A stretch of 42,137 bases of DNA from a virus. The notes beneath the pieces are model-generated. The model had not been told where the DNA came from. It saw nothing but the letters and a program-made list of their open reading frames with translations, and ran no database searches. Position numbers and translations under genes: made by a program. Below are positions 11,791-41,704 of the stretch, in pieces (within the stretch, counting starts at the first letter, position 1; each line of letters starts with the position of its first letter). The DNA lies in IMG/VR virus record IMGVR_UViG_3300029109_000001, one strand, 5' to 3'.

Positions 11791-11860
11791 ACTGGCGTTC
11801 GGAACTCCTGGGTAAACACCTGGGGGTTTAGTCATGCATAGGGTTGGGGAGGAGGGGATC

Positions 11861-12115
11861 ATGGGATCAGAAGCAAAGAGTATCCAGCAAGAGATTGATC
11901 GTCGCTTCCGGTATCACGAAGGCACCGACGATCAGTGCGAAGACTGCATTAAGGTTCGTGCCAGTGTGCAGGCGGCGGCGTATCGTGTGGCGGCGATCGC
12001 ACCGGACTGTCGTGAGCGTGAGCTAGCCATCACGCACCTAGAACAAGCACTTTCATGGGCGATTGCTGCTATCGTTCGCCCGTCGCAAGGCGGTGCTGCT
12101 GATGGCGTGGCGTAA
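11861..12115 (+). CDS. Hypothetical protein, 84 aa
   Basis: GGGAGGAGGGGatcATG start. Confidence 0.5.
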   Translation: MGSEAKSIQQEIDRRFRYHEGTDDQCEDCIKVRASVQAAAYRVAAIAPDCRERELAITHLEQALSWAIAAIVRPSQGGAADGVA

Positions 12116-13751: not shown

Positions 13752-15385
13752 TGATCTCCCCGGAGGAACGCCTCGACACGCTTCCCCCGGGGGTTCCCGA
13801 TTTAACGCTCGGCTGGGAGGCGCTAGCGTGGGCTGCCAAATATCTGAAACATCCGAATGGGCTTCGCGCCGGGTTGCCGTGGGTTTACACCGAGCGGCAA
13901 GCCAGATTCATCTTATGGTTTTACGCGATTGATGAGAATGGCAAGTGGCTTTTTTATAACTCTTTCCGCCGACTGGCCAAGGGGAGTGGCAAGAGCCCGT
14001 TTGCCGGCGCCCTGGCCCTGACGGAGTTACTGGCTCCGGTCCGGCTTGATCGGTTTGACCCCCAAGTGCCAGGCGCCTGCATCGGCAAGCCAGTGGCCAT
14101 GCCGTGGGTGCAAATAGCCGCAGTGTCCGAGAAGCAGACCGATAACACGATGAGGCATGTGCGTGCGATGGCGAACAAGAAAGCCGCACCTAGATTGCAC
14201 CGCGATTATGACATCGACCCCGGTAAAACCCAAATCAATATCGTGCCAGAAGGAAAGCTAGAGGTCATCACTTCATCAGCTATGACCCAAGAAGGCGCCG
14301 AAGCCACGTTCATCGTTGGTGACGAGCTCGAACACTGGACACCAGGCAACGGCGGCACCAAGCTATACAGCACCCTGGCGGACAACCTTGCCAAGTCAGG
14401 AAGCCGGATGCTAGGGACCTTAAATGCTTGGGAACCAGGCCTAGGCACGGTCGGCGAGAGCACCTTCCAGGCTTGGTGTCTCCAGGAAAACGGGAAGTCG
14501 AAGAACGACCGGCACATCCTCATGGATATCCGCCAAGCCCCGCTAGACACCAATCTGGCTGACGCCATATCGCTTCGCACCGGGCTGGAGTTTGTATATC
14601 AGGATTGCCCATGGGTGGATGTTGATACCATCATCACCAGGGTTTGGTCCCCGGAGGCATCCCCGGATGACTCCAAGCGCAAATACTTGAACTGGCCTAC
14701 CGCGGCCGCGAACGCCTGGGTAGACCCGAACGATGTTGCGCTCATGGCGCGCCGGGAAACCATCGTGGCAGAAGGGGAGGAGATTGTCATGTTCTTCGAC
14801 GGCTCATTGTCCCGCGATACCACAGCTTTGGTAGGGTGCCGGGTTAGCGATGGCCATGCGTTCCTGATTGGGTCGTGGGACCCCGGCAACAGCCATAACA
14901 CTGCCGGCACAGTGGATGTGGAGGCGGTAGACGCGCGTGTGGATAAAGCCTTCGCCAGGTATGATGTGAAAGCCTTTTTCGCAGACGTCCGCGAGTGGGA
15001 AAGCTTCACGAAGGTCACTTGGCCGGCCCGCTATAAGGACCGGCTACAGCTCTGGGCGAGCCCTGGTGGGAAGCAGCCGGAGCCGATTGCGTGGGATATG
15101 CGTGGGAAGCTTTTCGATTTCACCCAAGCGTGTGAGCTCACAGAGAGAGAAATCATCGAGCATGCTTTTACCCACGATGGCCACCCGGTGCTTACTGCTC
15201 ATATGCGGAACTGTCGGCGCTCAGAGAACCGCTACGGCATATCCGTAAAGAAAGAGTCCCCATCATCGGCAAAGAAGATTGATGCCGCAGTGTGCCTAAT
15301 CGGAGCGCGCATGGCCCGCAGACTGTATCTAGAGCACGCGGCGCATCACATGCCGAAGCATTCAGGAAGGGCGGTGTTTTTATGA
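13748..15385 (+). CDS. terL: Terminase large subunit
   Basis: 545 aa with ATPase and nuclease halves (VGDELEHW, FFDGSLSRD). Confidence 0.8.
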   Translation: MMISPEERLDTLPPGVPDLTLGWEALAWAAKYLKHPNGLRAGLPWVYTERQARFILWFYAIDENGKWLFYNSFRRLAKGSGKSPFAGALALTELLAPVRLDRFDPQVPGACIGKPVAMPWVQIAAVSEKQTDNTMRHVRAMANKKAAPRLHRDYDIDPGKTQINIVPEGKLEVITSSAMTQEGAEATFIVGDELEHWTPGNGGTKLYSTLADNLAKSGSRMLGTLNAWEPGLGTVGESTFQAWCLQENGKSKNDRHILMDIRQAPLDTNLADAISLRTGLEFVYQDCPWVDVDTIITRVWSPEASPDDSKRKYLNWPTAAANAWVDPNDVALMARRETIVAEGEEIVMFFDGSLSRDTTALVGCRVSDGHAFLIGSWDPGNSHNTAGTVDVEAVDARVDKAFARYDVKAFFADVREWESFTKVTWPARYKDRLQLWASPGGKQPEPIAWDMRGKLFDFTQACELTEREIIEHAFTHDGHPVLTAHMRNCRRSENRYGISVKKESPSSAKKIDAAVCLIGARMARRLYLEHAAHHMPKHSGRAVFL

Positions 15386-16797
15386 GCATGAGCCATAGCC
15401 AGGTCTTGGCTGCTGTGCGTGGTTTACTGGCACAGTATGCCAGGGAGCGCCAGGTGTTTGACCGAATCAACAGTGCGATGCGCCCATGGAGTCGACAAGA
15501 GATCATTAACCGGTTCGGCATCCTGAAGAACAAAAATGCCAACCTTATGATTGACCGGCAAATCCAGCTCGCTAGGGATTCGCAAACCATGTATCTGCCT
15601 TTGGTGTTGGACACGTTCGCGCAGTCAATGAAAGTGGAGGACTATTTCTCCGGGGTTGATGCTGGCGCCCGCGCCAGGGCATGGAAGCACTGGCAGCGTA
15701 ATAACCTTGATGCCCGCCAAACCGGCATTACCCGCGCCGCCCTGCAATACGGCACCTCGTATGCCGTGGTTGACCAGGGTATTGTGGGCGGTAATGCGGC
15801 ACCGCTAATTACCGGCGTGTCCCCCCGTCATATGACTGCTTACTATGGTGAGGCCTATGCTTGGCCGGGCGAATCTGGTGTGGCATCAGAATGGCCGATC
15901 CTGGCCCTAGAGGTTAAGGGCAACCGCATGCGGCTATTCGATGAGGAAAAAATCTACTACATCGGCGCTATCGAAACCCCGCAGGAAATCAAAGATTGGG
16001 CTGCCCATCCGTGGAACACAGCCAGGAATCTCCAGCTTATCGAAGCCCGCGACCATAACGCGGGTGTGCCCCCAGTAGTGAGGTTCCGCGACCGGTGGCT
16101 TCTGGAAGGCGAAGAAGTCGCCGGCATTATTGAGCCGCTGATCGCGCTGCAAAGCCGCATCGACCGCACAAGCTGGGAGGCCGCGGTCGCCCAATACTAC
16201 AGCGCGTTTAAACAACGCTATGTGGTCGGCTGGGCTCCAGACGATGACGCTGAGGGCATCCGCATGCGCGCCAGTGACGTGTGGCTCATCGACGCCGACG
16301 CGAAAGTCGGCCAGTTTGATGAAACGGACATCCGCCAGTATGTGGATGTGAAGCAGGCATCTATCCGCGATATGGCGGCGATCGCCCAGGTGCCAGCCCA
16401 GTCGCTCGGCGCCAACGCTATCAGCAATGTTTCCGCAGATGGCTTGGCGGCTATGGAATCTGCCAAGGACAGGAAATCCTCAGAGATCCGAACCTCCCTA
16501 GGCGAATCCTACGAGCAGCTACTACGGCTCTGCGCCCACCTTGATGGCGACCAGCAGGAAGCCGCCGACTTTGCGTCCGAAGTCAAATGGGCCGACATGA
16601 CAGCCCGAAGCTTCGCCCAAACAGTAGATGCCCTGGGGAAACTTGCCACTATGCTGAGTATCCCCCCGGAAATCCTTTGGGAAGACATCCCAGGGTTCAC
16701 TGCTGAAAAGATCAAACGCATCAAGCAAACAATGGCAAGAACCCCAGGCTTTGACGCTACGGCGGAACCTCCACTAGGCGACACGATAACGCGCTAA
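15382..16797 (+). CDS. Portal protein
   Basis: ATGA overlap with terL; 471 aa; located between terL and MuF. Confidence 0.75.
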   Translation: MSMSHSQVLAAVRGLLAQYARERQVFDRINSAMRPWSRQEIINRFGILKNKNANLMIDRQIQLARDSQTMYLPLVLDTFAQSMKVEDYFSGVDAGARARAWKHWQRNNLDARQTGITRAALQYGTSYAVVDQGIVGGNAAPLITGVSPRHMTAYYGEAYAWPGESGVASEWPILALEVKGNRMRLFDEEKIYYIGAIETPQEIKDWAAHPWNTARNLQLIEARDHNAGVPPVVRFRDRWLLEGEEVAGIIEPLIALQSRIDRTSWEAAVAQYYSAFKQRYVVGWAPDDDAEGIRMRASDVWLIDADAKVGQFDETDIRQYVDVKQASIRDMAAIAQVPAQSLGANAISNVSADGLAAMESAKDRKSSEIRTSLGESYEQLLRLCAHLDGDQQEAADFASEVKWADMTARSFAQTVDALGKLATMLSIPPEILWEDIPGFTAEKIKRIKQTMARTPGFDATAEPPLGDTITR

Positions 16798-16819
16798 CCC
16801 CCGGAGAGGCAGGTGACAC

Positions 16820-18544
16820 ATGGACCTGTACTCATACCATCAGGCTGACCGGCATATCATCGACTGGCTGGCTGATGCGATCTACAACCTCATCACCAAC
16901 CGGGGCGTGCCCACCAGCCTCGATGACATGTGGGAGCTCGTAACCGAGCTAATCCCCCTGATCCAGGAAGCACGCACCCAATCATATAAGGTTGCTATCG
17001 CCCACATTCATTCCGTGGCCACCACCCATGGTGTCCAGATCACCCCAGCGCCCCAAAAACCCTACTACCCTAATGCTGCCTGGAAAATGCTAGCCAGGGC
17101 CCTGGGATGGAACCCCACCCGGGACCCTATCCCCGGTCGCATCACCGACTACGATGCCACCTACCAGCAGCAGCTCGCGGACAAAATCATCCCCTTCCCG
17201 CCCGACCCTACCGACCCCGTCCTGGTCGACAAGGTAGCGCGCCGGGTAGCGGCAGGGGCAACGCGGCATGCCCGTGCCGCAGGTAGGGACGCTATCGCTG
17301 ATACAGCTGACCGTAATGAGGCAAAACCAGCCAAGCGGCGAGTTGTAGTGCAGGTTGACAACGAATCAGATGCCAGGCGACTGCGTGACGAGTTCTCCGA
17401 CCCCCGCAAGGTAGCAGTTGACCAATATGTCCGGCCGGCCAAGGGCGGTGGGGTAGTGTTGGGATGGGCCAGGGTTCTCACCGGTGCGGAAAGCTGCGCA
17501 TTCTGCGCCATGCTTGCTTCCCGCGGACCCGTGTATGAGGAATCCACCGTCCTCACCTCGGAAGAAGGCAAAGCGTACCACGATCATTGCGACTGCAAAG
17601 CAGTACTAGTGATTAAGGGAAGGCCATGGGAGGGCGAAGCCGAATACAAGGCGCTTAAAACGCTCTGGAATGACGCCCGCGATCATCCCACCAAAGAGGA
17701 ACTAGACAATGACCTAGAGATGCCAATAGACCGGTTCGGTAGCCGCTATCGGCAACTGGCGAAAGAAAATCCAGAAGCATTCGCAACCTTCAAGGACAGC
17801 GCTGACGATCCTGGCCAGCGGCCAGAGGAGATAGTGCCCGACTCTCACCCCGGCAGAGAAGAATATAGTCAGTCTCCCCGACAGGTGGAAGATTCCGGTA
17901 GCGTGTCAGAAGACGGCGGCATGGGATTGGCTGGTAGCGCTTTCGAACAGCCAAATAGTGATGGAACATTCACGCTGCCGGCGAAAGACGGATTCCCCGA
18001 ACTACGGTTGTCAACGCTTTACCCATATGATTTGGACGAATACCCGCGGCTGGAGGTTCCTGAAACCATGGAGCAGGCAGCAGTGCAGGTATCTCGTGTG
18101 AATTCCTTTGCTAACTGTGTGCGTGCTACTGCTGCTGCTGTGATGCGGATGCGCGGCTATGACATCTACCCGTACGCTACCTTGTATTCCGGCTCTGGTG
18201 GAGGTCTTCAAATCCTTGAGGCTTTGAAGATGTGGGAAACCCCTGAAGGTCCAGTAGAGGCAATTCAAACCACCGCTGAAGGCTGGGAAGCTGCGTTAAA
18301 GAAAATGCCTGATGGTTATGGGGTGTTTTCCTTTGAAATAGCGGATGCGCAGCAAAGGCATGTGATTCTCTGGAAGAAGGAAAGCGGTGGCGTGGTATTC
18401 GTTGATCCCCAAGCTGGAAAGGTAATTCCTTATGAGAAAATAGATGCTGAAGCTGCCACCGATGTCATTATTGCTAGGTTGGATAATGCTGAGCCTGTAG
18501 CCTGGAATCTTCCTGATGTTATTCAACCATTTGCTAGCATGTAA
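16820..18544 (+). CDS. MuF-like head morphogenesis protein with a C-terminal low-GC papain-fold toxin-like domain
   Basis: MuF core including CAFCAM...HDHCDC. C-terminal about 200 aa carry a Cys/His/Asp triad (FANCVRAT, QRHVILW, VFVDPQ). GC falls from about 63% to about 45% over this domain. Confidence 0.7.
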   Translation: MDLYSYHQADRHIIDWLADAIYNLITNRGVPTSLDDMWELVTELIPLIQEARTQSYKVAIAHIHSVATTHGVQITPAPQKPYYPNAAWKMLARALGWNPTRDPIPGRITDYDATYQQQLADKIIPFPPDPTDPVLVDKVARRVAAGATRHARAAGRDAIADTADRNEAKPAKRRVVVQVDNESDARRLRDEFSDPRKVAVDQYVRPAKGGGVVLGWARVLTGAESCAFCAMLASRGPVYEESTVLTSEEGKAYHDHCDCKAVLVIKGRPWEGEAEYKALKTLWNDARDHPTKEELDNDLEMPIDRFGSRYRQLAKENPEAFATFKDSADDPGQRPEEIVPDSHPGREEYSQSPRQVEDSGSVSEDGGMGLAGSAFEQPNSDGTFTLPAKDGFPELRLSTLYPYDLDEYPRLEVPETMEQAAVQVSRVNSFANCVRATAAAVMRMRGYDIYPYATLYSGSGGGLQILEALKMWETPEGPVEAIQTTAEGWEAALKKMPDGYGVFSFEIADAQQRHVILWKKESGGVVFVDPQAGKVIPYEKIDAEAATDVIIARLDNAEPVAWNLPDVIQPFASM

Positions 18545-18576
18545 GTCAGATTTGGTTGTATGTAAGAGAGGTGTTT

Positions 18577-18876
18577 GTGGTGATTGATAAGAGAACCGCC
18601 TACGACATTTTCCGTAAAGAAGCGGATGAAATGGTGAAGGTAGGTACGCCTCATGTGAAGGAAACCGGATTGGAAAATGATGAGTTTTTCTTCGCTACTA
18701 TTGCCGCGTTGGAGTCTTTTCAGGGAGATAAGCGGTTCTTAAACCCTCCTGGAACTCCTGTGGCGCTTGTCCGCAAGTCTGATGGGGAAGTAGTTAAGAT
18801 GCACATCCAAACCCATCTGGAAGAATGGGTAGACATGAAGGCTACTATGACCCCTGTGAACTATTTGGCCGCTTAA
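18577..18876 (+). CDS. Candidate cognate immunity protein, about 99 aa
   Basis: Directly follows the toxin-like domain in the same low-GC block; AGAGAGG RBS then GTG; followed by a terminator. Confidence 0.5.
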   Translation: MVIDKRTAYDIFRKEADEMVKVGTPHVKETGLENDEFFFATIAALESFQGDKRFLNPPGTPVALVRKSDGEVVKMHIQTHLEEWVDMKATMTPVNYLAA

Positions 18877-18886
18877 GCGTCAACAC

Positions 18887-18917
18887 ACCCGTAATTTCAT
18901 GTAATGAGATTACGGGT
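18887..18917 (+). terminator. Hairpin terminator after the immunity gene
   Basis: acccgtaat-(13-nt loop)-attacgggt, then tatcttat. Confidence 0.5.
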
Positions 18918-19003
18918 TATCTTATGCCCAAATCTGCCTGTTTTTGAGGAGTTCGACCTACGTGCGTTTGAAACGCGGAAGGGCTCGCATCGCTATGGAC
19001 TAA

Positions 19004-19030
19004 CCCCACCGGTCTGGTGGGGTTTATTTA
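19004..19030 (+). terminator. Rho-independent terminator
   Basis: ccccacc-ggtct-ggtgggg, then tttattta. Confidence 0.55.
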
Positions 19031-19069
19031 TACCCACCCCCTACATTTCACACAATCAAGGAGGCAATT

Positions 19070-19615
19070 ATGCCGAATAATATCGCCGATACCCAAGACG
19101 AAAAACAGGAAGAAACCACGAACCCTGCTGTGCAGAACCCGGAAGAGTCCTCCCCATCGCAGTCCCCAGCCCCGGAGATGACCCTGGAAGAAGCCCTAGC
19201 GGAGCTGGAAAAAACCCGGCAAGAACGTGACGCGGTTCAAGCCGCCGCCCAGAAATGGCAGCAGCATGAGGACTCGCAGAAATCAGAACTCCAGCTAGCC
19301 CAAGAGAAACTAGCCGCCGCCCAGCAGGAACTCGCCCAAGCCCAAACCACAAACCTGCTGCTGGAAGTCGCAGCAGCCCACGGCATCAAGCCTGAGGATG
19401 TGCCGCTGCTGGGCACTGGCACGAAAGAAGACCTAGAGGCCCGCGCGGCCAGGATTAAAGAACTCTACGGTGCAGGGAATACCGCCCCGCCGTCGAATAG
19501 CCCCCGCCAAAACGTCCAATCCGGGTCCGGGGTAGGTAACGAACCCCAGCCAGACCCGGTAACCTACCCCAGCTCATGGGTGCCTAAAGCACTCCGCAAA
19601 AACCACGACCAGTAA
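19070..19615 (+). CDS. Scaffolding protein
   Basis: AAGGAGGcaattATG start; acidic Q/A/E-rich coiled coil; lies upstream of the capsid genes. Confidence 0.65.
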   Translation: MPNNIADTQDEKQEETTNPAVQNPEESSPSQSPAPEMTLEEALAELEKTRQERDAVQAAAQKWQQHEDSQKSELQLAQEKLAAAQQELAQAQTTNLLLEVAAAHGIKPEDVPLLGTGTKEDLEARAARIKELYGAGNTAPPSNSPRQNVQSGSGVGNEPQPDPVTYPSSWVPKALRKNHDQ

Positions 19616-19633
19616 GGAATACCAAGGAATACC

Positions 19634-20002
19634 ATGGATATCACTAAAGTTCACTATGATCCAGCAGCCGCTATCACGGTGAAAGCGAAGAGGAAAATCC
19701 CCGCCGGCACATTTGTTGTTCCCGTCGACGACATTGTTGGCCGAACCCCGGTTGTTGATATTGCCGCTGCTGACGCTTACCCGTTCGGTGTGGTCGCTCA
19801 TGATGTAGACAAGGACGGCTATGTCACTGTTTACCGCGCCGGGCATGTTCTCGATGCCCTAGCCGCTGGTGCGTTTGTTGCCGGTGACAAGCTCAGCACC
19901 GCAGCTGACGGCAAGGTAGTCAAGGCCGCTGCTGGCCCTGTAGTCGCTATCGCGCTCACCAAGGGCACATCAGGTAAACCCGCCACTATTGCCCTACTCT
20001 AA
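19634..20002 (+). CDS. Head decoration / DUF2190-like protein
   Basis: 122-aa Ala/Val/Gly-rich protein between the scaffold and the major capsid gene. Confidence 0.5.
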   Translation: MDITKVHYDPAAAITVKAKRKIPAGTFVVPVDDIVGRTPVVDIAAADAYPFGVVAHDVDKDGYVTVYRAGHVLDALAAGAFVAGDKLSTAADGKVVKAAAGPVVAIALTKGTSGKPATIALL

Positions 20003-20017
20003 GACAAGGAATTTCTC

Positions 20018-20926
20018 ATGCCTAAAAACACTGGCCTTTTCCCCGGCGTCGCCCCGACAGTGGCCGACGGGGTTATCACCCTGGACATGATGCTCCAGGA
20101 GCCCACACGGATTGCCCGCTATATCGCTGATATTACTGCCCTTGGTATGTTCACTGACCGGATTTTCTCCACTGGTGAGGCTAAGGGCGGCGCTATCCTC
20201 TACGAGGTAGCGCTGAAGAACGCCCTGCTTGCCGATGACCATAATGGTGTCATCGCCCCTGGCGGTAACTACCCCACGGTTGATGTCACTACCGATGACC
20301 CCAAGGTCATCAAAACTGTCAAAGTTGGCGGCAAGTTCTCCGTTACTGATGAGGCTGCAAAGCGCAATGACCTGACTATGATGCAGCGACGTGCCCAGCG
20401 GGTCGCAAATACTATGGTTTATGATCTCGATGGCATGGGTATGCAGGCCGTCCGCGAAGCACTCACCGCCTACGATGCGGATATCATCAAAGTGGAGTCC
20501 GGCGGCTGGGCAACCATCAACAAAACCAAGAAGCTAGACCAAACCGCAGCCAAGTCCATTCGGGCTGACATTAATAAGGCCTTCACTGAGGGGCGGAAAT
20601 CCCAAATGGGCTACGTGTACAACCTCCTAGCTCTCCACCCCGATGACCACCTGGAATTCTCCAACGCCTTCGACGATGATGAGGCGGAATCCAAGTTCCT
20701 GCAGAACAAGGGCCTAGAGGTTATTTCCAGCCCGCTGGCCACTAAGGGCGAAGGCTGGCTCATTGCCGAGCAGCAAGTAGGCACGATGGGCGTGGAAGAA
20801 GGCATTACCACCACAACCTACCGTGATGAGGACCGGGACCTGACCTGGACGAAAACCCGTGCCATGCTCGCCTACGCGGTAACGGACCCGCTCGCGGTCA
20901 TTAAGATCACCGGCCTGGGTAGCTAA
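20018..20926 (+). CDS. Major capsid protein (HK97 fold)
   Basis: 302 aa; position and composition. Confidence 0.75.
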   Translation: MPKNTGLFPGVAPTVADGVITLDMMLQEPTRIARYIADITALGMFTDRIFSTGEAKGGAILYEVALKNALLADDHNGVIAPGGNYPTVDVTTDDPKVIKTVKVGGKFSVTDEAAKRNDLTMMQRRAQRVANTMVYDLDGMGMQAVREALTAYDADIIKVESGGWATINKTKKLDQTAAKSIRADINKAFTEGRKSQMGYVYNLLALHPDDHLEFSNAFDDDEAESKFLQNKGLEVISSPLATKGEGWLIAEQQVGTMGVEEGITTTTYRDEDRDLTWTKTRAMLAYAVTDPLAVIKITGLGS

Positions 20927-22480: not shown

Positions 22481-23419
22481 GTGACCACCACGGACTTCTA
22501 CAAGCTAAAAGACAAACAGAGCGACCTATTATTCGCACCCCTGGACTACCTGCTTTTGATGTGCCCCTATGGGATTGAAATCCCAGATCGCATCACCGAC
22601 AGCAACGGAAACTTATTAGAGTTGCCGGAAGGCTGGTTCTCTATCGGCGAGGGTGAGAAAAAAGCCGGCGTTGACCTGGCCCCCGATTCCAAAGTTGAAG
22701 GCCCTGAGGGTTATGGTAGCCCTGGCCGCCGCCGCACATTCGTCACGGAAGAATCATTCACGGTTGATGTCACCGCCCAGGAATCTCGCTTGCGAACCCT
22801 AGAGGCATTCTACGATTTGATGGAGGCCCAGTATGACGAGGGCACCGGCTATTTCGCTAAGAAACGCCGGGCTGCCCGGGTGCGGGAATATTCCAGCATC
22901 CTGGTCGCTAAAGATGGTGATCCGGGGCATGAAATCTACCCCTATTTCGTCTTTCCCAAGATGACGATTGAGAAGAAGGGTAAGCAGTCTTTCTCCGAGA
23001 CGGACGTCATTAAGTACCCGATTACTCTGGGCGCGCAGGATGATGAAAAATACGGTGCCCTGTACGGTTTCGGCTTGTGCGGCCCTGGCTTCACCCCAGA
23101 GCTAGCAAAGCTCATGGGCATCACCGGCGCCCACAAACTATCCGATGCCAAATACAAGTTCTCTGTCAAAGGCGCCACGTCTGGCACGTACACCATCACC
23201 ATTGGCGGGAAAACGACCGCCACCATCACCTATAACGCTGATGCCGCGGCTGTGCAGGCGGCTATCCGGGTTTTGGGTGAAAACGATGCCGAGGTTACCG
23301 GCACGGTGGACGCTGGTTTCGTGATCGCTAAGGTATCCGCCGCCCCAACAGTTGCCGCCACTGGTTTGGCGGGTGGTGGTTTCCCGAAATCGGTGGAGGT
23401 CACCAAGGACCCCTCCTAG
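22481..23419 (+). CDS. Major tail protein
   Basis: AAAGGAGAcagccGTG start; Ig-like C-terminus. The ORF track's TTG 22418 start is unlikely. Confidence 0.7.
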   Translation: MTTTDFYKLKDKQSDLLFAPLDYLLLMCPYGIEIPDRITDSNGNLLELPEGWFSIGEGEKKAGVDLAPDSKVEGPEGYGSPGRRRTFVTEESFTVDVTAQESRLRTLEAFYDLMEAQYDEGTGYFAKKRRAARVREYSSILVAKDGDPGHEIYPYFVFPKMTIEKKGKQSFSETDVIKYPITLGAQDDEKYGALYGFGLCGPGFTPELAKLMGITGAHKLSDAKYKFSVKGATSGTYTITIGGKTTATITYNADAAAVQAAIRVLGENDAEVTGTVDAGFVIAKVSAAPTVAATGLAGGGFPKSVEVTKDPS

Positions 23420-23498
23420 CCCTCGCCGGTAACAACACCTTACCTGGGCGAGGGCTCCTACCAACTGCCGCCCCATAAAACGAAGGAGGAACCGAACC

Positions 23499-35957: not shown

Positions 35958-36743
35958 ATGTCGAAACCAGATAATAATCATACACCAGGCGGTGGCCAGC
36001 TGATCCCTATTACGAACATGGGGGAAGATGTCCAGGCGGTGTTGGGGCGTGACCTTCATGGTTTTCTGGAAGTGAAAACCCCCTATAAAGATTGGTGGCC
36101 GCGAATGGTTGCCTACGGTTTTGAGGAGGGGGTGGACTATGCGCTCAAAAATGAGCATTCGGCGTCACCTGCGGGAATGCCGTCTCGGCCGCGGTTGAAT
36201 CATGTTGTGTCTTTGGACATGGCAAAGGAGATTGCCATGATCCAGCGCTCCGCGAAGGGTAGGCAAGCCCGCCGCTATTTCATCGATGTGGAAAAGCGTG
36301 CCCGCATGGCGCCGGCGTTTGACCCGTCGCAGTTGACCCGATCCGAGATTCTTTTAATTGCGCTCAATGCTGAAGAGGAACGCCTGGCCTTAGAGGCTGC
36401 TAATAAGCAGCTCCAGCCGAAGGCGGATGCCTACGACTGTTTTATTGATTCCACCGGCTCCTACAGCATGGGCACGGTGGCGAAAATGCTAGGCATCGGC
36501 CAGAACACGCTTTTCCGTGAGCTACGGAACCGGGGCATCTTGATTACTAAAGGCGACATGCGGAACACCCCATACCAACGCTACGCAACCTATTTCGAGG
36601 TGAAGGCCGGCGGCTATACCCGTTCGAACGGCACCCAGGTGGTAACGCACACGACTCGTGTCCGCCCCCGGGGGATTGATTTCATCCGCCGCACACTGGG
36701 CTTGCACGGTGCTCACCCCATGCTGCCTATGACTTTCCAATAA
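35958..36743 (+). CDS. Antirepressor (AntA-like N-terminus, KilA-C/ORF6C C-terminus)
   Basis: GAAAGGAGActcttcATG start; LHGFLEVKTPYKDWWPRMVAYGFEEGVDYAL; MGTVAKMLGIGQNTLFRELRNRGIL. Confidence 0.65.
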   Translation: MSKPDNNHTPGGGQLIPITNMGEDVQAVLGRDLHGFLEVKTPYKDWWPRMVAYGFEEGVDYALKNEHSASPAGMPSRPRLNHVVSLDMAKEIAMIQRSAKGRQARRYFIDVEKRARMAPAFDPSQLTRSEILLIALNAEEERLALEAANKQLQPKADAYDCFIDSTGSYSMGTVAKMLGIGQNTLFRELRNRGILITKGDMRNTPYQRYATYFEVKAGGYTRSNGTQVVTHTTRVRPRGIDFIRRTLGLHGAHPMLPMTFQ

Positions 36744-39461: not shown

Positions 39462-40622
39462 ATGCCCCCCGCCCCTAAAAAACGCCTCTTCGGCACAATA
39501 GCACGCCTATCCTCCGGTAAATACCGCGCCCGCTACACCGGACCCGACGGCAAAAAATACTCCGGCCCCCACCCATTCTTCACCAAAGACGATGCTGGTG
39601 CTTGGCTCCGCCAAGAACAAAAACTCATTGAGTTCGACGAATGGCAACCCCCACACCTCCGGTACCGGACGAAAGAAGACGCCACCCGAACCGTCGGCGA
39701 GTGGCTATGCCAATGGCTAGACCTTCAAGAAAAACGCCTAAAACCCTCCACCATGGACAACTACCGTGCAGTCCTAGGTCGCCGCATCCTGAACACCACG
39801 GGCAAAGCCGGAAGACTACGCGATATCCCCTTGGTCAAACTCACACGCAAAGACGTGATCGCGTGGTGGGACGCAATAACTATCAAGCATGGATACCAGT
39901 CCTACAACCGCGCCGCCTACTCATGCCTCCGCACCGCTATACAAGCAGCAGTAGATCGAGATCTGATCCCCGCCAGCCCGGTAGATGTACCAGACGCCCG
40001 ACGCCGCCCTAAGCCAGCACGAAAAGAACTTCCCACGGTCGCCACCATGCAGAAAATTATCGACCAACTGAAACCGCCACACCGACTGATAGCAGTCCTC
40101 ACCTTCTTCCACGGCATGCGCATAGGAGAAGTCTTAGGCCTCAGGCGTAAAGACATCACCATCACAGGTGACACTATACTGATCCATATCAGGGGCAACG
40201 CCTACAGGATCGCAGGGAACATGACCTACCAGCCCACTCCCAAAACCAGCGCCAGCCACCGTACCATCCCCGTCTTTAAAAAATTCCACCAAGATATCAT
40301 CGACCACCTGGACACCATTGGCGACAGCCCCGATGCCTTCATTTGCACTAGCAGCACCGGAAGAATCATCTCAGATACTTTTTACAGGTCCGTCCTCCAC
40401 CGTGCTAAAAACCGCGCCGGGATCACCGAGCGTATCAGCCCGCACTATGGCAGGGTGTGGCTTATCACTACATTGGTGGAGCAGGGTATGACGATCCCCG
40501 CTATCGGTGAGCTGCTAGGCCAGGTGGACCTGAAGGTCATCACTGAGATTTATATGCGCACTTCTGATGCTAGGCGGCAGGAGGCATTGCAGCGGGTGAA
40601 TGACTTGCTCATGGGCCCATAA
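39462..40622 (+). CDS. int: Tyrosine integrase
   Basis: Arm-binding-type N-terminus (GTIARLSSGKYRARYTGPDGKKY); catalytic-region motifs (MRIGEVLGLRRKD, HYGRVWLITTL, EIYMRTS). Confidence 0.85.
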   Translation: MPPAPKKRLFGTIARLSSGKYRARYTGPDGKKYSGPHPFFTKDDAGAWLRQEQKLIEFDEWQPPHLRYRTKEDATRTVGEWLCQWLDLQEKRLKPSTMDNYRAVLGRRILNTTGKAGRLRDIPLVKLTRKDVIAWWDAITIKHGYQSYNRAAYSCLRTAIQAAVDRDLIPASPVDVPDARRRPKPARKELPTVATMQKIIDQLKPPHRLIAVLTFFHGMRIGEVLGLRRKDITITGDTILIHIRGNAYRIAGNMTYQPTPKTSASHRTIPVFKKFHQDIIDHLDTIGDSPDAFICTSSTGRIISDTFYRSVLHRAKNRAGITERISPHYGRVWLITTLVEQGMTIPAIGELLGQVDLKVITEIYMRTSDARRQEALQRVNDLLMGP

Positions 40623-40804: not shown

Positions 40805-41704
40805 TCAGAAAAGAATGGGTTCGGGTTGGGTGGTGTTGGGTGTCCATTGCGCGGTGTGTTTTTTGGTGACTTGCAGGTTGGGGATGGTGAGGTTGCTTGA
40901 GTAGATGATTGATTCGGCGCCGACATGTTGGTGGTGGGCTGTGTGGGCGATAGGGAAGATTGCTGCTCGGGCGTGGTGGTAGAGGTCTTCGGTGATGAAG
41001 GGGTCATCATCGTATGTGAGCATCCAGTAAAACGTGGCGTCGGCTAGTTTCTTGGCGAGCGTTTTGTGTTGGGGTTCATCAAAGGCGTGGAGGTAGAGGC
41101 CTTCGCCTTGGCCTAAGTAAGGGGGGTCAGCGTAGACGAAAACGTTTTCACCGTGTTCTTCCATGGTGGTGAGGAAGTCTATGCCTTCTGATTCGGTGAT
41201 GGTGATGTTGTCTGCCATGGCGGCGATAGTGCGGATGCGGTGGCTGAGGTTATCGCGGTTGAATCGGGCGTCGATTTTCCATTTGCCGGTTTGTTCCATA
41301 CCTCCGATAGGTCGGGCACCTAGGATACCGGATCGGCATGTGCGGTTGAGGTAGAAGGTGGCGAACCCGAGTGTGAGGTCATCCTTGTCTTGGGGCGTAT
41401 CGTAAATGTTTTTATAGTGTTTCCATGCATCAATGTTGAGTTCGCAGGTGGCAATGAGGTCGTTGAAGTCTTCAGGTTTTTGGGTGATTGCCCGCCAGAA
41501 TGCTGCGATACCGCGGTTAAGGTCGTTGAGATAAACATGCTCGACGATCCCTTCGTGGAGGAGTTTTAGCGCAGCTCCTGCACCCCCGGCAAAGGGTTCC
41601 GCATAGTAGCGTGGTGGTATTTGTTGGGCGTTGATGAGCGAAGCGATATAGGGGGCAAGTTTCGCTTTGCCGCCTGGATACCGGAGTGGGGAAATAAATC
41701 TCAT
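40805..41704 (-). CDS. Dam-family (D12 class) N6-adenine DNA methyltransferase
   Basis: LRYPGGK, EPFAGGAG and DPPY motifs; its start overlaps the ParB-like stop as ATGA. Confidence 0.8.
   Translation of the reverse strand: MRFISPLRYPGGKAKLAPYIASLINAQQIPPRYYAEPFAGGAGAALKLLHEGIVEHVYLNDLNRGIAAFWRAITQKPEDFNDLIATCELNIDAWKHYKNIYDTPQDKDDLTLGFATFYLNRTCRSGILGARPIGGMEQTGKWKIDARFNRDNLSHRIRTIAAMADNITITESEGIDFLTTMEEHGENVFVYADPPYLGQGEGLYLHAFDEPQHKTLAKKLADATFYWMLTYDDDPFITEDLYHHARAAIFPIAHTAHHQHVGAESIIYSSNLTIPNLQVTKKHTAQWTPNTTQPEPILF

Follow-up and report, generated by a model that had tools for sequence, protein, structure and literature searches.

The viral record IMGVR_UViG_3300029109_000001 of IMG/VR, a stretch of 42,137 nucleotides that we refer to as the window, is the genome or prophage of a temperate siphophage. 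Its head module contains a plus-strand open reading frame (ORF) of 574 residues, 16820..18544, in which a MuF-like (VG15) minor head protein is fused to a Tox-PL1 domain. A 99-residue ORF on the same strand (18577..18876) follows, starting with GTG behind the ribosome-binding site AAGAGAGG at 18564-18571. The likely explanation of this pair is that the fusion is a MuF-family polymorphic toxin and the small ORF, a candidate immunity protein, its cognate partner, in a temperate phage that probably infects an oral Corynebacterium. An initial annotation, made from the sequence alone, had recognised the layout of a polymorphic toxin and its immunity gene on a MuF protein. The wider comparison bears this out: the domain attached to MuF is swapped between relatives, and a small ORF stands beside every related toxin domain examined, down to 43% identity.

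The C-terminal domain, residues ~398-574 (18011..18541, +), is a divergent member of the Tox-PL1 family, PF15644 (Gln_amidase). Against the Pfam model, described as 'Papain fold toxin 1, glutamine deamidase', the window protein scores 17.8 bits (E = 0.0076) and covers model positions 2-114 of 114. A profile of the window clade found 67 relatives among 1.84 billion representative proteins. When 55 of these were aligned with the window protein, 49 of the 56 sequences matched PF15644 (best E 1.6e-22), and the family cutoff was exceeded by the proteins of three related loci (L035, L079 and L083) and of Arthrobacter phage Abba. Six residues, N432, C433, G446, H514, D529 and Q531, are invariant in the alignments of 56 and 54 sequences. 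N432-C433, H514 and D529-x-Q531 correspond to the NC-H-DxQ signature given for Tox-PL1 by Zhang, de Souza, Anantharaman, Iyer and Aravind (2012; PMC3482391).

The motifs FANCVRAT, QRHVILW and VFVDPQ, in which the initial annotation had seen papain-like spacing, are present in the C-terminal part of the 574-residue product, and their Cys/His/Asp triad is invariant across the 56 aligned sequences. The predicted catalytic codons are those of Cys433 (18116-18118), His514 (18359-18361) and Asp529 (18404-18406), together with Gln531 (18410-18412). The fold is papain-like as modelled. AlphaFold, given 54 sequences, returned a model with a predicted local distance difference test score (pLDDT) of 90.4 and a predicted template modelling score of 0.88, in which Cys433 is N-terminal in a helix, with His514 and Asp529 on neighbouring strands. 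OspI is also recovered in sequence searches with the family profile (E = 5e-5), a similarity that probably explains Pfam's name for PF15644. The nearest solved relatives are OspI of Shigella (PDB 3B21) and SpvD of Salmonella (PDB 5LQ7), which are 12-14% identical to the window domain.

Direct homologues of the domain are scarce. Three clusters were found among 5.8 billion proteins, a scan of one genome per species returned no relative, and tblastn of the toxin region (residues 361-574) against 50,697 phage records gave nothing. Hits in the PDB obtained with a four-sequence profile were rejected as spurious: they were designed pentatricopeptide repeat proteins only, with a 27-residue stretch matched ten times and no significant single domain. 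Among the 56 aligned proteins the carrier was VG15 in 12, Phage_Mu_F in 2 and Phage_min_cap2 in 2. DUF7211 (PF23847), a different and uncharacterised N-terminal carrier, is present in 13 of the 56 (remote relatives P0019-P0071).

The other end of the fusion is a head protein. The MuF/VG15 head-morphogenesis module spans residues 1-312 (16820..17755, +), includes the Cys/His cluster CAFCAM...HDHCDC and is 94-98% identical among sister phages. It matches VG15 in Pfam (PF25310, E = 6e-19, residues 214-284) and phrog_193 in PHROG (E = 5e-37, residues 39-312), confirming the initial annotation, which had ended the MuF part of the 574-residue product at this cluster. The Pfam Phage_Mu_F model does not match the window fusion protein, and the MuF label for VG15-type proteins is based on the annotations of their relatives ('MuF-like minor capsid protein'). 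In cultured phages the MuF part is closest to the minor capsid proteins of the Corynebacterium phages Poushou, Colleen, TouchMeNot and Arianna, at 46% over residues 1-341. Between the two parts lies an acidic, Pro/Ser-rich linker (17756..18010, +) without a family match, whose start, WEGE...LWDDA..., resembles that of MuF relatives bearing CdiA_C. The linker is mostly 5' of the modelled segment, which starts at residue 392 and whose first 10 residues have a pLDDT of 65.

A scan with the MuF part alone for relatives recovered 46 loci. The lineage at 45-47% identity in MuF, together with L076 and L077 of the lineage at 35%, carries CdiA_C (PF18451; 2e-9, 1.9e-13), followed by unrelated ORFs of 113-125 residues. 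Other members of that 35% lineage (L079, L081 and L083) carry PF15644 above threshold (1.9e-6, 6e-8) and then ORFs of 81-87 residues, and L086 has a short MuF without a C-terminal domain. In Corynebacterium phage Poushou, with the same gene order as the window, gp5 is a MuF-EndoU fusion and is followed by the 90-residue gp6. Because MuF relatives bear CdiA_C, EndoU, Tox-PL1 or nothing at the same junction, the C-terminal region is, as judged from sequence comparison, a replaceable module and not a conserved part of MuF. The initial annotation had suggested this comparison. The C-terminus is neither conserved nor uniform in guanine-plus-cytosine (GC) content among relatives, and the triad and the small ORF are both retained, the opposite of what it had named as grounds for doubt.

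The small partner is 99% identical to P0004, a protein called independently in the database. It has no family in Pfam, PHROG or NCBIfam, even at E <= 10; its homologues amount to only 12 clusters, and tblastn against the 50,697 phage records found nothing. A partner homologue of 96-99 residues is nevertheless found 3' of every Tox-PL1 copy of the window clade that we examined. In more distant phages identity is 58% and 43% for the toxin region and, respectively, 65% and 36% for the partner. The partner's AlphaFold model (pLDDT 93.9) has an N-terminal helix packed against a beta-sheet (alpha+beta), and among predicted viral structures it clearly resembles proteins of ~100 residues from Arthrobacter and Microbacterium phages (E = 2e-5, TM 0.78). 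Aligned as a family with gp5 of Arthrobacter phage Abba, annotated 'immunity protein', it gives an hhalign probability of 93.7% (E = 1.9e-7), and Abba gp4, directly 5' of gp5, is MuF-like and matches PF15644 at 1.7e-9. With the small ORFs of the distant MuF-Tox-PL1 loci L079, L083 and L035 the hhalign probability is 15%. The partner is thus a recurrent companion of the window toxin clade in actinophages. The initial annotation could name neither family; this still holds for the partner, which has no curated family even though Abba gp5 is a homologue, and no longer for the toxin domain.

The toxin's C-terminal half and the partner gene are replaced or diversified as one block in phages that are otherwise 94-98% identical. 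A 16-kb colinear alignment with the sister phage L007 shows 90-98% identity nearly throughout, 52-62% over 18248-19000 and then 96-98% again. This hypervariable cassette (18248..19000, +) comprises the C-terminal half of the toxin, the small ORF and a spacer with a hairpin; the trough in identity coincides with a low-GC block and contains His514 and Asp529. In other alleles the breakpoints lie at 18379 and at 19003-19042. Toxin tip and small ORF occur in 15 distinct combinations, with at least four major, well-separated groups of toxin-tip/inhibitor alleles on a nearly identical backbone; the window represents type A, L007 and L028 type B, and L020 and L024 type C. Where the MuF core is 94-98% identical to that of the window, the toxin C-terminal half is 57-66% and the small ORF 58-61% identical. 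The divergence of the toxin half correlates with that of the small ORF (r = 0.94 over 105 pairs, which are non-independent, being drawn from related sequences). A mosaic allele, L029, is of the window type until MPDGYG and of type B after it, and carries the type-B small ORF, which places any specificity determinant within the last ~75 residues of the toxin.

A decayed prophage remnant (L001-L006, for example L001 4996-7760) adjoins the chromosomal genes rph, rdgB and murI. Its MuF gene is broken into ORFs of 154 and 301 residues, while Tox-PL1, a 96-residue partner and AntA/ANT are retained. The remnant's protein occurs in at least 15 contigs, and six loci from different samples were examined.

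GC content is 0.599 over 16820-17639, 0.539 over 17640-18247 and 0.465 over 18248-19000. The low-GC block begins at ~18248, within the toxin domain, and extends to ~19000. The initial annotation had put a fall in GC across the last 900 nucleotides of the fusion gene and had taken the C-terminal ~900 nucleotides plus the small ORF as the cassette. The fall is real, with its onset ~600 nucleotides later and its end at ~19000, and the mobile low-GC unit is confined to the distal half of the toxin domain, the small ORF and the spacer. At third codon positions the portal, scaffold and capsid genes have a GC content of 0.64-0.68, which drops to 0.52 in the small ORF and to 0.38 over the last 300 nucleotides of the toxin gene. 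Equally GC-poor stretches of 753 nucleotides make up only 2% of those in the window, the others lying in the lysogeny region at its left end. In the related lineages examined the cassette has a GC content of 0.43-0.51, compared with 0.52-0.70 upstream; the drop is present in every one and marginal only in the prophage remnant (0.50 compared with 0.52).

Delivery together with virion DNA and a part in kin competition, both raised in the initial annotation, are hypotheses. How such a pair might work can be sketched by analogy with gp7 of SPP1 and with the models of Zhang et al. (2012), Jamet et al. (2017) and Iyer et al. (2017). The capsid would contain a few copies of the fusion, located at the portal, that leave with the DNA, and the papain-fold domain would thereby reach the cytoplasm of the next cell. 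There it might modify a cytoplasmic protein, either by cleavage or by deamidation of a glutamine, as does OspI, the only relative, a distant one, whose activity is known. The small protein would bind to its cognate toxin allele, in the variable half, and block the toxin in the producing cell and, if it is expressed in lysogens, there too. Each pair of alleles would then define a specificity group.

Several points weigh against a toxin with its immunity protein. The window protein does not reach the PF15644 gathering score of 24.1 bits, and the partner matches no known immunity family, Imm35 included. The partner lies in a late operon, and we found no sigma-70-like promoter in 17600-19200, although the scan may not fit actinobacterial promoters; expression in a lysogen, which protection of kin would need, is therefore unsupported. 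The non-independence of the sequence pairs reduces what can be read from the correlation between toxin and partner, and a single tract of recombination, rather than co-adaptation of the two proteins, could partly account for the divergence of the block. Finally, injecting a toxin into its own future host would be costly for a temperate phage, which makes a milder regulatory or anti-defence role possible.

If the toxin reading is right, the alleles could represent a natural series of specificities of a papain-fold enzyme delivered by the capsid. New specificities of toxin and inhibitor would arise when recombination within the toxin domain keeps the Cys helix and swaps the His/Asp half together with the inhibitor gene. 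Lysogens expressing one inhibitor allele would be protected only against virions of that allele, and co-resident oral Corynebacterium phages and their lysogens would be sorted into incompatibility groups. We put this forward tentatively, as a possibility with rather less than an even chance of being correct.

The same gene pair could instead provide an injected effector for host takeover or anti-defence, an account that we regard as unlikely but that shares much of the evidence. Here the domain, brought in by the virion, would act as infection begins by cleaving or deamidating a protein of host defence or regulation, the small protein would inhibit or chaperone it in the producer until packaging, and the diversification would reflect an arms race with the host target or the inhibitor. 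The architecture, the fold and the virion context suit it as well as they suit a toxin. Iyer et al. (2017; PMC5512222) argue, in their 'polyvalent/early effector' model, that MuF fusions are effectors delivered with DNA, and Jamet et al. (PMC5576092) propose that MuF domains of low toxicity, such as peptidases, might tune the choice between lysis and lysogeny or resist defences. SpvD and OspI modify specific host proteins and are not killing toxins, and the position of the partner in a late operon, with no promoter of its own found, fits protection of the producer cell better than protection of a lysogen. Against an effector, the junction is occupied in relatives by CdiA-CT and EndoU, nuclease-type domains of inter-bacterial toxins that each come with a small ORF of their own, and allele-specific co-variation with an adjacent inhibitor is a hallmark of toxin-immunity pairs. 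An effector and a toxin differ mainly in target and consequence, and the present data do not separate them.

A role in morphogenesis is far less probable. The papain-like domain would be a capsid-maturation or self-releasing peptidase and the small ORF its inhibitor during assembly, which would agree with the annotation of relatives in PHROG and GenBank as 'head/capsid maturation protease' and with Zhang et al. (2012), who considered a processing role possible for Tox-PL1 in MuF systems. In addition, a search of the window's ORFs and their families revealed no gene for a separate prohead protease from the portal gene to the capsid gene. The domain is not, however, the conserved, indispensable partner of the scaffold and capsid genes by which a prohead protease is recognised. 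Phages with the same scaffold-capsid module and gene order have CdiA_C or EndoU in its place, and one relative lacks it. Its distal half is only 57-66% identical where the scaffold and capsid genes are 93-98% identical (nucleotide), which would be unexpected in an enzyme co-adapted to its substrate, and its foreign GC content also speaks against a core morphogenetic gene.

A prophage addiction (toxin-antitoxin) module, stabilising the prophage by post-segregational killing with the fusion to a head gene incidental, would account for the two-gene layout with a small neutraliser 3' of the toxin and for the pair's retention in the decayed remnant despite its broken MuF, yet it is the least credible explanation, since all intact phages have the toxin as an in-frame extension of a late-operon structural protein, toxin precedes neutraliser with no promoter found, and the diversity of domains at the junction follows the polymorphic-toxin pattern.

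The toxin-immunity reading that we prefer builds on known systems. MuF-Tox-PL1 fusions in prophage head modules were described in 2012 by Zhang et al. (PMC3482391), who list Actinobacteria among the hosts. Like the window gene, those fusions join a MuF-type head protein to an NC-H-DxQ papain-fold domain and stand beside terminase, portal and capsid genes. The window copy differs in falling below the PF15644 threshold and in having a partner other than Imm35, which was linked to Tox-PL1 there. That study leaned to a processing role, whereas the pattern of alleles in the window clade speaks for a toxin and its inhibitor. Polymorphic toxins on MuF proteins of temperate phages were described by Jamet et al. 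(2017; PMC5576092), and share with the window a conserved MuF N-terminus, a variable C-terminal toxin, a small ORF 3' of it and carriage by temperate phages. That survey found them mostly in Firmicutes, in contrast to the window's probable Corynebacterium host and VG15-type N-domain, and the main text of PMC5576092 does not contain the terms papain, PL1, PF15644 or deamidase. For Apk2 (PMC12226406), toxicity and a mostly strain-specific immunity by protein-protein interaction were shown experimentally. In the literature that we searched we found no experimentally tested papain-fold MuF toxin.

Among cultured actinophages, Abba (gp4/gp5) and Poushou (gp5/gp6) have the window's order of portal, MuF fusion, ORF of ~90-100 residues and scaffold. 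Poushou differs in carrying EndoU rather than Tox-PL1, and Abba gp4 in its annotation as a maturation protease and in an additional C-terminal extension. OspI and SpvD are more distant in kind, being type III effectors that act on eukaryotic proteins, without a MuF carrier or an adjacent inhibitor gene. The CdiA-CT/CdiI and Rhs-CT/RhsI systems are alike in that a conserved part for delivery gives way abruptly to a variable toxin tip, with a cognate immunity gene next to it and atypical GC content. CdiA and Rhs loci use type V or type VI secretion, whereas the window toxin would, by analogy, be delivered by a phage capsid. The switch point in the window also differs from theirs in lying inside the toxin domain, with the Cys helix conserved and the His/Asp half variable.

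The architecture has thus been known since 2012 and the MuF toxin family since 2017, and the same arrangement exists in cultured actinophages. New are a divergent Tox-PL1 subclade lying below the Pfam threshold, a partner family for which no curated model exists and a well-resolved series of alleles with breakpoints inside the toxin domain. MuF toxins are widespread in prophages of human-associated bacteria. In the literature we found no demonstration of the delivery of a MuF toxin into cells, and our literature searches found no member of Tox-PL1 with a known target. An allele series on a near-identical backbone is an unusually clean natural experiment for cross-immunity, binding and target finding. 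If the alleles are indeed a specificity series, they would provide the first functional role for a Tox-PL1 domain and for protein delivery mediated by MuF. The unnamed inhibitor family, common to Corynebacterium and Arthrobacter phages, could receive a curated model.

Many cultured actinophage MuF fusions with Tox-PL1, EndoU or VIP2-like domains are labelled 'capsid maturation protease' or 'head maturation protease' (for example L088, which is Abba NC_049498.1 3380-5739). For the C-terminal domains of actinophage MuF-toxin fusions, the 'capsid maturation protease' labels are probably wrong.

Downstream of the small ORF the initial annotation had reported a hairpin. Both the ORF and the hairpin are present: the latter, of 14 bp, is part of the cassette (18887..18917, +; -21.4 kcal/mol, z = -4.9), and in the type-B cassette a different hairpin takes the equivalent place. 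A second hairpin with a T-run, resembling an intrinsic terminator (19002..19033, +), forms the conserved right edge of the cassette, 5' of the scaffold gene. The hairpin itself, 19002-19024, is followed by TTTATTTAT; it is a more canonical terminator than 18887-18917 and is conserved in sister phages. With two terminator-like hairpins inside the late head operon, expression of the capsid genes would need read-through or antitermination.

The head module runs from the small terminase through the large terminase, portal, fusion gene 16820-18544, 99-residue ORF, scaffold and decoration-like protein to the major capsid protein. The portal, directly 5' of the fusion gene, is of the SPP1 type (PF05133). 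The scaffold gene lies at 19070-19615 and the major capsid gene at 20018-20926, with the gene for the decoration-like protein between them. The order portal-fusion-small ORF-scaffold is that of gp4-gp9 of Corynebacterium phage Poushou. A megablast of the head region (15292-20926) against the 50,697 phage records gave no match. Many near-identical phages occur in human-associated metagenomes, Human Microbiome Project samples among them, and one relative, L024, is situated in a 168-kb contig. The window encodes a tyrosine integrase (39462-40622), an ImmA/IrrE-like peptidase (2288-2698), an AntA/ANT antirepressor (35958-36743) and a Dam methylase, which together mark the phage as temperate.

The host is probably an oral Corynebacterium, as suggested by matches to spacers from arrays of clustered regularly interspaced short palindromic repeats (CRISPR) whose repeat occurs in Corynebacterium, by the relationship to Poushou and by a GC content of 57%. 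A 29-nucleotide CRISPR repeat, GGAACTACCTCCGCGTGCGCGGAGAATAC, with spacers of 32 nucleotides, was found in metagenome-assembled genomes of Corynebacterium sp. and in one contig binned as Saccharibacteria. Spacers from arrays with this repeat match the window at 41469-41500 (30/32) and at 23415-23446 (31/32).

Among the related loci, one candidate for an orphan module was rejected. L013 seemed to show a complete type-A toxin with its partner and, next to them, a tip and a partner of type B, the tip truncated and the partner intact, which would have been classic evidence for a polymorphic toxin. The junction is a CRISPR repeat, and the contig runs into an array with a period of 61 nucleotides. 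The only other record with this junction, L038, shares 3.7 kb with L013 at 99.4% identity and likewise has CRISPR repeats at these junctions; it may not have been assembled independently. In both records (L013 7150-10440, IMGVR_UViG_3300007294_000050; L038 10660-14383, ODIB01000315.1) phage fragments are joined to a CRISPR array. They are probably assembly chimeras, formed through the identity of spacer and protospacer, that mimic a tandem duplication of the toxin-immunity pair, and neither counts as evidence here. No genuine orphan module was found among the related loci examined.

Elsewhere in the sister phages, L007 (1747-2001) and L024 (3273-3527) encode a protein with an Acb2/Tad1 hairpin domain (PF24729) 5' of the terminase genes. 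The family is one of anti-CBASS/Thoeris sponges, and the site corresponds to ~11850-12100 in the window.

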